Below the pieces are notes generated by a model. It was not told where the DNA came from. It did not search any database and saw nothing but the letters and a program-made list of their open reading frames with translations. The translations under genes and the position numbers were made by a program. Below, one piece after another: positions 5,112-12,778 of a stretch of 64,000 bases of DNA. Origin of the DNA: a virus. The first letter of the stretch is position 1; each line of letters begins with the position of its first letter. The stretch spans positions 60,854 to 124,853 of IMG/VR virus record IMGVR_UViG_3300020437_000004; one strand, 5' to 3'.

Positions 5112-5201
5112 AATAGTGCAGGGAACACTGAGTATAATATTCCTGTCTCACCCTCAGAGGCAGGTATTAGAGACTTGCTTTACATCCCCATAGGTCTCGG
5201 T
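5112..5201 (-). ncRNA. psbA 5' leader RNA, PhotoRC-II-like
   Basis: ACCGAGACCUAU...GUCUCUAAUACCUGCCUCUGAGGGUGAGACAGGAAU...GUGUUCCCUGCAC directly upstream of psbA; matches my recollection of the PhotoRC-II motif. Confidence 0.6.
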
Positions 5202-5257
5202 TAATGGGATGTTATGTAACGAAACCGTTACATGGTGTTGGGATCAACACGCTTCTT

Positions 5258-9064: not shown

Positions 9065-9137
9065 CGACTCAGGTTGGATTCGAACCAACGACCGACTGTT
9101 TAGAAGACAGTTGCTCTATCCACTGAGCTACTGAATC
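9065..9137 (-). tRNA. tRNA-Arg(UCU), CCA not encoded
   Basis: Cloverleaf GATTCAG / GCTC-GAGC / ACTGT-CT TCT AA-ACAGT / GTTGG TTCGAAT CCAAC / CTGAGTC. Confidence 0.95.
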
Positions 9138-11970: not shown

Positions 11971-12156
11971 CTATTTTTCACCCTTTCTTGGATTCTTTAG
12001 ATACCAAGAAGGTGTGCCAAACACGTTTAGTGTAACCCATTTGGCATACGAAACACCTCTATAACACAGTAAAGCAAACACTTTATCTGGGTCATGTTTT
12101 TCTGGATCGTATTCTGGTAGACCGTAGTCCCATTCAATTTTAACTTTTAACCGCAT
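11971..12156 (-). CDS. Hypothetical protein with YRG motif (DUF4278-related)
   Basis: LLCYRGVSYAKW; probable start MRLKVK. Confidence 0.6.
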   Translation of the reverse strand: MRLKVKIEWDYGLPEYDPEKHDPDKVFALLCYRGVSYAKWVTLNVFGTPSWYLKNPRKGEK

Positions 12157-12262
12157 CGCTGCCACCCTTTAAAAAATGGAGGAAGCGAACTTCTTGGTAG
12201 ATGAAGTAGATGAATACAACAGATCCAATAGTTATCCAACTAACAGTCTGTAGTGCTTCCAT
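12140..12262 (-). CDS. 40-aa single-TM peptide
   Basis: Hand-translated MEALQTVSWITIGSVVFIYFIYQEVRFLHFLKGGSDAVKS. Confidence 0.5.
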   Translation of the reverse strand: MEALQTVSWITIGSVVFIYFIYQEVRFLHFLKGGSDAVKS

Positions 12263-12266
12263 CTTT

Positions 12267-12407
12267 CTACACCACTGCTAGTTTCTTTTCGACCTTAATA
12301 CCACGATACATAAGTTCATGGTTTCTTGCCTGTGCGGCTTCTGCTAGTACCTTTGCTTTGTACTGCTCAGCGTCATACTTGACGCCACGATATGTGATAG
12401 TAGTCAT
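12267..12407 (-). CDS. DUF4278 family 'downstream peptide' (IF17/GifB-related family)
   Basis: Hand-translated MTTITYRGVKYDAEQYKAKVLAEAAQARNHELMYRGIKVEKKLAVV; two YRG motifs, AGGAG ribosome-binding site. Confidence 0.85.
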   Translation of the reverse strand: MTTITYRGVKYDAEQYKAKVLAEAAQARNHELMYRGIKVEKKLAVV

Positions 12408-12466
12408 TTGTTTCTCCTAAAGTTGGTGAAGTTTCTCCTTTAACCCTTGCGGGTGATCCGAGTTCC

Positions 12467-12666
12467 CGTTCCTTTAGTCGTTTGCGTCCCAATCGCATGT
12501 GAGACCTACTGCCTCAGTCAGATGTGTCTTGTACAATTCCACGATCTCTGCCCTCTGTTGAGGTGTAAGATCGGGATGTCGGTCTGCACGGTCAAGCTTT
12601 TCAGCAATGTCCACACAAGTAATACCTGCTACAAGTATTCCGACTAGATGTATCATGGGATGAACG
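12467..12666 (-). ncRNA. Second glutamine-II aptamer, split by an ORF in the P2 loop
   Basis: CGUUCA-UCCCA (12666-12656) ... UGGGA-CGCA-AACGACUAAA-GGAACG (12491-12467). Confidence 0.6.
12474..12656 (-). CDS. 60-aa hypothetical protein ending in WDAND
   Basis: Track ORF; GGAG 10 nt upstream of the ATG; two Cys. Confidence 0.7.
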   Translation of the reverse strand: MIHLVGILVAGITCVDIAEKLDRADRHPDLTPQQRAEIVELYKTHLTEAVGLTCDWDAND

Positions 12667-12669
12667 CTC

Positions 12670-12707
12670 CGTTCCGCGACTTACTTGCGTCCCCTAAGGG
12701 ATGAACG
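12670..12707 (-). ncRNA. Glutamine-II (Downstream-peptide) riboswitch aptamer
   Basis: CGUUCA-UCCC UUAG GGGA-CGCA-AGUAAGUCGC-GGAACG; DUF4278 gene downstream; CTAAATA at 12736-12742. Confidence 0.8.
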
Positions 12708-12778
12708 ATACAGATATGTTATCATATCCACAACTATTTAGCAAACTTAGTCATTTAACTTAACGTTAACCTTAAGTT

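Follow-up and report, generated by a model that had tools for sequence, protein, structure and literature searches.

The window analyzed here, a 64,000-nucleotide (nt) stretch of the IMG/VR record IMGVR_UViG_3300020437_000004 (124,853 bases, estimated to be 66% complete), is part of a T4-like cyanomyovirus, a marine cyanophage. On its minus strand, at 12707-12467, lies a riboswitch-like element made up of two aptamer-like units, A and B, the second of which closes around an entire protein-coding open reading frame (ORF); a short DUF4278 gene, presumably the one that is regulated, follows. We favor, with moderate confidence, the interpretation that this is a cis-regulatory type-I (glnA RNA) glutamine riboswitch whose two cores interlock at the 5′ end of a small operon and enclose a gene. 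The parts of the element are as follows:

12702-12707, minus strand: 5′A, CGUUCA, the 5′ strand of the outer P1 (partner 12471-12467 in the nested pairing; invariant in 53/53)
12690-12701, minus strand: P2A hairpin, UCCC-UUAG-GGGA (covaries)
12682-12689, minus strand: junction CGCAAGUA, which holds the AGUA half of loop E (AGUA at 12685-12682) and fits the RF01739 consensus CGGAAGUA
12677-12681, minus strand: H5, AGUCG, the 5′ strand of the shared helix (P3 of the outer core; partner 12480-12476)
12661-12675, minus strand: inner P1 hairpin, GGAACG-GAG-CGUUCA, composed of 3′A (GGAACG, 12675-12670), the GAG loop (12669-12667), and 5′B (the second CGUUCA, 12666-12661); strands invariant, partner inferred
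12656-12660, minus strand: 5′ strand of P2B, UCCCA, whose final A is the A of the ORF's AUG (partner 12491-12487)
12474-12656, minus strand: enclosed ORF, 60 amino acids (aa), T4-like cyanophage gene cluster 430, phrog_504
12487-12491, minus strand: 3′ strand of P2B, UGGGA (the Trp codon plus GA of the Asp codon)
12482-12486, minus strand: inner-core junction CGCAA (C of the Asp codon, Ala codon GCA, first A of the Asn codon)
12476-12480, minus strand: H3, CGACU, the 3′ strand of the shared helix, whose U opens the UAA stop
12473-12475, minus strand: AAA, a GAA-type half of loop E, whose first two A's finish the stop codon
12467-12472, minus strand: 3′B, GGAACG, the 3′ strand of the outer P1 (invariant)

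Unit A reads CGUUCA-UCCC-UUAG-GGGA-CGCAAGUA-AGUCG-C-GGAACG (12707-12670), and the 3′ part of unit B reads UGGGA-CGCAA-A-CGACU-AAA-GGAACG (12491-12467), the latter also encoding W-D-A-N-D and the UAA stop of the ORF. A 164-nt loop separates the paired A and U of P2B, and the GAG loop of the inner P1 hairpin contains the ORF's GGAG. Read directly, all motifs listed in a previous annotation of this DNA, made by a model from the letters alone (the original prediction), are present on the minus strand where it had placed them.

The enclosed gene and the stem that closes around it

Relatives of the element were collected by scanning viral contigs for the junction between 3′A and 5′B, a target chosen to avoid bias towards the ORF. 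The search pattern demanded GGAACGG, 1-4 nt, and CGTTCAT, and CG[CG]AAGUA served to recognize true loci; roughly 17 of the 119 viral-contig matches were chance and were filtered out. From IMG/VR and isolates, 107 true elements (99 nonredundant) were parsed, and 375 isolate phage records match the locus. The 14-base junction pattern also matched at least 120 loci in genome contigs, those listed all being chance matches in unrelated bacteria and none with the full motif, a result that is uninformative for cyanobacterial genomes. An ORF may lie in the loop of the second unit or of the first, giving four architectures, and the second hairpin holds one in 66 of the 99 elements:

53 of 99 elements: compact first hairpin, ORF in the second hairpin (the window type)
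24 of 99 elements: both hairpins compact
13 of 99 elements: ORFs in both hairpins
9 of 99 elements: ORF in the first hairpin, compact second hairpin

Nine or more isolate cyanophages have homologues of the ORF, with protein identities of 36-73%. The split arrangement, which is kept in 6/6 isolate relatives (P-TIM40, MbCM1, S-SSM5, P-RSM4, P-RSM6, and P-RSM1), is far beyond chance.

The enclosed ORF is under protein-level selection. Among 66 divergent elements it is intact in 65, with a length of 49-66 codons; it starts 9-11 nt after the first base of the second CGUUCA and, in 62/65, its stop codon, always UGA or UAA, is separated from the last GGAACG by exactly 1 nt. Entropies at the three codon positions of the interior (1.49, 1.00, and 1.66) give a coding signature, position 2 being the most conserved; two cysteines are invariant, with variable third positions in their codons, and insertions and deletions come in multiples of three. 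The protein belongs to a recognized phage family, phrog_504, which is of unknown function in PHROGs. All of this makes it extremely unlikely that the insert is an untranslated expansion of a long structured RNA hairpin with an incidental open frame, a notion with which the spacing of the Shine-Dalgarno sequence would agree: 10 nt separate GGAG from the AUG, which is rather long for such a spacing, and other loops read GGAU or GGAAU.

A single-sequence AlphaFold model of the enclosed protein is a two-helix hairpin (predicted local distance difference test score, pLDDT, 70). A Pfam helix-turn-helix match proved to be weak noise (E 0.04-0.12), a lipoprotein lipobox at the L-T-C motif was rejected because Thr is atypical at -1, and a protein atlas search returned viral hypothetical clusters only, below 0.9.

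Toward the 3′ end of the gene, conservation extends to synonymous sites. The terminal Ala codon is always GCA (62/62), the terminal Asp codon never varies at its third base (62/62), and Asp is encoded by GAC in 61/62, which amounts to a constraint at the level of RNA. This bears out the view that the last codons of the ORF double as aptamer nucleotides: the Asp and Ala sites show no free synonymous variation, and no element lacks the upstream CGUUCAUC(C/U)(C/U), the reverse of the pattern that the original prediction had named as refuting it.

The stem that closes around the ORF, P2B, is canonical at pairs 1-5 in 66, 66, 66, 66, and 62 of 66 elements (326/330 cells), using C-G, U-A, A-U, and U-G pairs; at pairs 6-8 the canonical share is ~50%. 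In a formal covariation count on the 53 window-type sequences, aligned with MAFFT, 96.3% of cells were paired, with a covariation score of 0.129 versus 0.058 in shuffles (reached by 0/500), and at most 50% paired when the partners were slid. P2B itself is 97.7% canonical in these sequences, with two-sided changes in 4/5 pairs, and its compensatory changes act across 140-190 nt. The Trp codon is swapped for Ile, Glu, or Arg codons together with a change in the 5′ strand, and in one subclass (UCUAU...AUAGA) the Trp codon becomes an Ile codon and the AUG is displaced by one base; as this subclass keeps the pairing, it is the pairing that is conserved and not the peptide. P2A covaries as well (94% of cells canonical with several pair types among 77 compact examples), such that P2A, P2B, and P3, the helix treated in the next section, are all conserved with covariation. 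The proposal that UCCCA/UGGGA closes around a real ORF, with the A of its AUG base-paired, therefore holds: the 5′ strand of P2B ends in that A, and both the covariation and the coding signature support it.

These data bear on a further explanation, namely, that the locus is a relic or recombination scar, in which an ORF cassette sits in the loop of a once-functional second aptamer and the flanks persist as coding sequence or as recombination boundaries. The occurrence of all four hairpin architectures would fit such a history, as would metatranscriptome contigs with common flanks and different inserts, and the direct repeats (CGUUCAUCC, GGGACGCAA, and GGAACGG) could promote recombination. We nevertheless judge it very unlikely, given the compensatory changes over such distances in four of the five stem pairs, the conservation of the noncoding 5′ half, the replacement of the Trp codon whenever the 5′ strand changes, the nucleotide-exact start and stop geometry in 62/65, and the persistence of the arrangement while the enclosed proteins diverged to 36% identity. 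In the contigs in question, which come from two studies, 12465-12491 is joined to 12654-12691 by another insert (e.g., one of 144 letters) that replaces the window's ORF; they belong to phages that co-occur with this one and carry different members of the enclosed-gene family.

P2A can also hold an ORF, of 59-68 aa (T4-like gene cluster 429), as at L004:396-624 (P-RSM4) and 21 other loci (e.g., L007, L020, and L060); isolate P-RSM4 has ORFs in both hairpins, with UCCAA/UUGGA as its first stem. The 5-bp stem closing such first-hairpin ORFs covaries (e.g., UCCAA/UUGGA), and their stop codon lies mostly within or just before the CGCAAGUAA junction. Their proteins have a hydrophobic N terminus and two cysteines, as do those of the second hairpin, and several match a hidden Markov model built from second-hairpin ORFs (E 1e-11 to 1e-6); the two sets look like one paralogous family.

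The shared helix, loop E, and the pairing of the two units

A further helix joins the units. In unit A, AGUCG sits between AGUA and C-GGAACG; its complement in unit B, CGACU, sits between CGCAA and AAA-GGAACG. The two strands covary among relatives (AUUCG/CGAAU, AGUCA/UGACU, and GGUCG/CGACU). In a longer, 8-pair class, AGCCGACN pairs with N′G(C/U)(C/U)GACU, where N-N′ is G-C, A-U, or U-A. The shared helix is at least 96% canonical at 6/8 positions, and its shuffle control gives 0.842 versus 0.744 +/- 0.007. Positions 3 and 6 of the 8-pair class (e.g., L005, L022, and L026) are repeatedly noncanonical (C.A or A.C), with covarying pairs on either side.

The two halves of loop E are distributed over the two units. 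AGUA follows CGCA in unit B in 0/99 elements, GAA (69/99) or AAA (30/99) is found solely ahead of the final GGAACG, and in unit A a lone C links H5 to GGAACG in 99/99. A complete loop E can therefore arise only from the 5′ part of unit A and the 3′ part of unit B, across the helix; the combined order, CGGAAGUA-P3-GAAGGAACG, matches that of type I, and we would accordingly predict a loop-E motif where AGUA and AAA flank AGUCG/CGACU. Under the interlocked reading, the outer core would run CGUUCA, P2A, CGCA-AGUA, P3 (AGUCG/CGACU), AAA, and GGAACG, with P3 enclosing ~200 nt. Within P3 would lie a circularly permuted second core, with P1′ formed by GAACG-GAG-CGUUC, P2′ by UCCCA/UGGGA, CGCAA as its junction, and P3 shared with the first, so that the ribosome-binding site (RBS), start, last five codons, and stop of the enclosed gene would all be aptamer nucleotides.

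Because of the 164-nt ORF, the full nested core of the window is not scorable by RF01739; natural ORF-less relatives served as a stand-in for an Infernal test on a loop-deleted RNA. Two of them, L035 (43.6 bits) and L019 (41 bits), pass the RF01739 gathering score of 35. The alignment of L035 joins the first CGUUCA to the last GGAACG, with a 38-nt insert in P3 (AGU...ACU), and the 86-nt match of L019 runs between the same two ends. Both are identical to the window at CGUUCA, CGCAAGUA, AGUCG-C, and GGAACG; L019 also has AACGACUAAA, where L035 has GAA. Scores of the nested alignment exceed those of unit A alone by 11-14 bits. In a permissive 600-nt scan of the window, unit A reached 30 bits with RF01739 (gathering 35) and 26.2 bits with RF01704 (gathering 33), with E ~2e-4 for each, and the local RF01704 alignment of the 3′ hairpin around GGAACGG contains noncanonical pairs and large deletions. 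The original prediction had assigned the element to glutamine-II; with AGUA and GAA halves present and RF01739 passing in ORF-less relatives, the family is instead closer to type I.

Unconstrained folding of the window's element (245 nt) in ViennaRNA gives the outer P1 a pair probability of 0.95, versus 0.03 and 0.00 for the two P1 helices of a tandem arrangement, and the inner P1 hairpin one of 0.25-0.29; the nested and tandem folds come to -71.8 and -69.3 kcal/mol, respectively. The two units are probably not independent. The tandem of separate aptamers that had been proposed is at odds with a covarying helix that joins the units, with the presence of one loop-E half in each, and with a spacer of only 3 nt.

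An arrangement of this kind would consist of a self-contained unit A (12707-12670) of type-II-like topology and a second aptamer, unit B (12666-12467), built around the ORF, with AGUCG/CGACU as a kissing or pseudoknot contact and the GAACG-GAG-CGUUC hairpin confined to the ligand-free state. Several lines of evidence speak for it: unit A by itself attains the RF01739 and RF01704 scores given above; cotranscriptional folding would favor local pairing of 5′A with 3′A first; GGAACG follows the 5′ strand of a 3′ hairpin here as it does in type II; and published work treats glutamine doublets as independent pseudo-cooperative tandems (PMC9481103). Moreover, in the long-helix class, unit B alone passes the RF01739 gathering score, at 35-37 bits (L022, L008, and L052). 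Neither unit, however, can make a complete loop E alone, unit A lacking GAA and unit B lacking AGUA; the 1-nt linker (C) in A and the 3-nt linker in B would need to span a helix of 5-8 bp; and both the curated model and the pair probabilities favor the nested partners. On balance, we hold independent tandem units to be unlikely. The GAACG-GAG-CGUUC hairpin, once cast as an alternative structure that excludes the first P1, can indeed form, but under nested pairing it is the P1 of the inner permuted core and not a competitor. As observed in the long-helix class, the passing unit B matches make use of a local AG-CCGA-CU mini-hairpin, and two alternative P3 arrangements may compete there.

The choice of nested partners follows from the loop-E argument, the linker lengths, the curated model, and the folding energy, and not from covariation. 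The covariation of P1 and P2 that had been put forward as a check is positive for the P2 stem and uninformative for P1: all four P1 strands (CGUUC/GAACG twice) are invariant in the 53 sequences, so covariation cannot decide between nested and tandem partners, which weighs against the interlocked reading, as do the passing scores of unit B in the long-helix class and the following observations. A whole-window Rfam scan at gathering thresholds detects no glutamine riboswitch. P2B and the shared helix (H) have an ensemble probability of ~0.18, and the minimum free energy (MFE) pairing around the ORF is somewhat different. The inner core has no loop E and only a 1-nt linker. In addition, the loop length and the AGUA of unit A are partly built in by the search pattern and the definition of true loci, and relatedness among the sequences inflates the shuffle controls.

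Gene neighborhood, putative promoter, and candidate expression platform

Features flanking the element are, in the direction of transcription, as follows:

14381-13176, minus strand: nrdB
13267-12779, minus strand: 162-aa ORF between nrdB and the element
12739-12744, minus strand: -35-like hexamer TTGCTA of a putative promoter (relatives conserve TTGACT)
12716-12721, minus strand: -10-like hexamer TAACAT (transcript start predicted, from conservation, a few nt before the element)
12707-12467, minus strand: riboswitch-like element
12443-12454, minus strand: optional hairpin ACCC-GCAA-GGGU in the DUF4278 leader (in the window and S-SSM5, absent in P-TIM40)
12414-12422, minus strand: CUUUAG (12422-12417) overlapping the AGGAG RBS of the DUF4278 gene; candidate partner of CUAAAG at 12477-12472
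12267-12407, minus strand: DUF4278 gene (IF17/GifB-like, YRG motif), 46 aa, the presumed regulated gene
11949-11927, minus strand: terminator-like hairpin, after two small ORFs downstream of the DUF4278 gene
11906-11713, minus strand: manA RNA (182.6 bits), directly upstream of talC

As had been anticipated, a DUF4278 gene follows the element at 12407-12267: its product carries TYRG and MYRG motifs, scores 26.6 bits against Pfam PF14105 (gathering cut-off, 25.3), and belongs to phrog_5049. The isolates S-SSM5 and P-RSM4 are annotated in the order nrdB - GC659 - GC430 - GC660 (DUF4278) - talC, as in the window, and P-TIM40 and MbCM1 have a layout in common with it. Between the DUF4278 gene and the terminator lie two small ORFs (12140-12262 and 11971-12165, both on the minus strand, with a 26-nt overlap), one encoding a 40-aa hydrophobic peptide without a family match and the other a 64-aa phrog_6192 protein. 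The manA RNA is preceded by a promoter-like site and the terminator-like hairpin at 11949-11927; elsewhere in the window, a PhotoRC-II RNA (64 bits; 5129-5224, minus strand) and a tRNA (9065-9137, minus strand) are present. A match to mir-6128 at 12207-12265 is noise (25 bits versus a gathering score of 92).

In relatives, TTGACT and TAnnnT are conserved on either side of a 17-nt spacer, with ~8 nt between the end of TAnnnT and the first CGUUCA. The counterpart in the window is TTGCTA-17-TAACAT; a generic promoter scan of the window placed this putative promoter below its cut-off. From the position of the promoter, the element would start essentially at the 5′ end of the mRNA. A DNA palindrome with arms of 6-9 bp spans the -10 hexamer, at 12709-12732 (minus strand) in the window and at the equivalent place in most related loci. 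Its arms (TGTGGATAT...ATATCTGTA in the window; GGTCTA...TAGACC or TGTGTTA...TAACACA elsewhere) vary but stay complementary; the palindrome could be an operator, could form a hairpin in read-through RNA, or could simply result from the near-palindromic -10. Many relatives (e.g., L035, L040, and L041) have an NtcA-type motif, GTA-N8-TAC, ~8 nt upstream of TTGACT; a search of the window for a canonical NtcA site was negative, and P-TIM40 is likewise without a canonical copy at this place.

Marine metatranscriptome contigs identical to the window cover ~12249-12692, and one of them (12378-12629) spans the 3′ part of the ORF, the last GGAACG, and the start of the DUF4278 gene, which is consistent with cotranscription of the two genes. 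As the RNA data consist of contigs only, the uncovered flanks (above ~12720 and below 12249) do not count as evidence.

A candidate expression platform lies at the RBS of the DUF4278 gene. CUAAAG runs from the end of H3 through the loop-E purines into the first G of 3′B and is complementary to CUUUAG at that RBS, and CUUUAG or CUUUGG is found in 22/22 elements with CUAAAG, versus 16/41 of those with CUGAAG. The resulting anti-RBS pairing would resemble the model proposed for the Synechocystis gifB leader (PMC6212724). This pairing is the MFE structure of the isolated 3′ segment (-17.7 kcal/mol). Less favorable to our interpretation, the z-score of that fold is only -1.45, and pairing of this anti-Shine-Dalgarno type is absent in 25/41 GAA-type elements.

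Proposed regulation and relation to known systems

Type-I glutamine riboswitches are three-way junctions with loop E and P3. In solved aptamers of type I and of type II, the ligand stabilizes P1 (CGUUC/GAACG), and both types are ON switches for IF17-like genes (PMC6698751 and PMC6212724). Glutamine aptamers "occur in tandem" (PMC2864571), and 157 doublets have been counted as pseudo-cooperative systems (PMC9481103). By analogy, glutamine binding to the element would stabilize its P1 helices. The ligand-bound fold would bury the GGAG and AUG of the enclosed ORF in P1′ and P2′, turning the enclosed gene off, and would keep CUAAAG engaged in P3, loop E, and P1, so that the RBS of the DUF4278 gene is left free and the IF17-like gene is switched on. 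Conversely, a ribosome translating the enclosed gene would unwind P2′, P3, and the outer P1; since it must do so, no single mRNA could be translated and act as a sensor at once. The anti-RBS pairing, however, would likewise be opened by ribosomes that terminate at the UAA, so that positive translational coupling is an alternative to reciprocal control and counts against the scheme. Both this regulatory logic and the binding of the ligand are inferred by analogy with the characterized riboswitches. A bolder version, which we offer only tentatively and consider doubtful as a whole, is a translation-coupled riboswitch in which glutamine shuts the enclosed gene and switches on the IF17-like gene, ribosomes erase the sensor, and the hairpin loops act as landing pads where cyanophages gain and lose two-cysteine genes.

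Of the known systems, the type-I glutamine riboswitch (RF01739) comes closest, examples being the Synechocystis gifB leader (PMC6212724) and a solved Synechococcus aptamer (PMC6698751). The element has the same conserved order (CGUUCA, P2, CG(C/G)A-AGUA, P3, and (G/A)AA-GGAACG), loop E likewise flanks P3, the position is the 5′ leader of a DUF4278/IF17-like gene, and ORF-less phage relatives pass the threshold. It differs in that P3 is not a short hairpin but would comprise ~200 nt and hold a permuted core, one hairpin of which encloses a translated gene, in that the start and stop codons coincide with aptamer nucleotides, and in that the window copy is invisible to the model at gathering.

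Likeness to glutamine-II (RF01704, Downstream-peptide; PMC6698751) extends to CGUUCA-hairpin-CGCA, GGAACGG, the association with YRG/DUF4278 peptides in marine picocyanobacteria, and an inner core without loop E; in contrast to type II, however, the element has AGUA and GAA halves, the 3′ hairpin of the model around GGAACGG is not matched, and its score remains at 26.2 versus 33 for gathering. With tandem glutamine doublets (PMC9481103 and PMC2864571), it shares two aptamer units set head to tail on one leader but differs in the covarying joining helix, the one shared loop E, the 3-5 nt spacing without a platform for each unit, and the presence of an ORF in either hairpin. ORFs in the loops of group I introns (homing endonuclease genes; PMC3984707) are similar as protein genes in a terminal loop closed by a long-range stem, whereas the host RNA here would be a ligand-sensing riboswitch, the start and stop of the ORF lie in the conserved core, and the product is a two-cysteine protein of ~50-65 aa without a nuclease signature. 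The accessible literature on glutamine aptamers mentions neither a helix joining two units, nor a loop E divided between them, nor ORFs within the hairpins, and we found no paper describing a gene-inside-sensor layout.

Riboswitch aptamers are usually seen as compact, noncoding domains located 5′ of the genes that they regulate. In this element, the sensor itself contains a gene, and since that gene is enclosed in a sensor stem, ligand sensing and translation would be in physical competition for one RNA. Marine T4-like cyanophages commonly have this arrangement, which standard Rfam scans miss. If our reading is correct, it represents a new regulatory architecture, in which an aptamer helix tolerates a translated insert of 160-200 nt, and the coupled form of it would let a single leader drive two phage proteins reciprocally, depending on nitrogen. 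The phage would thereby control an IF17-like putative regulator of glutamine synthetase, plus a small protein, in line with the nitrogen status of its host, which would bear on how cyanophages manage infection in a nitrogen-limited ocean.

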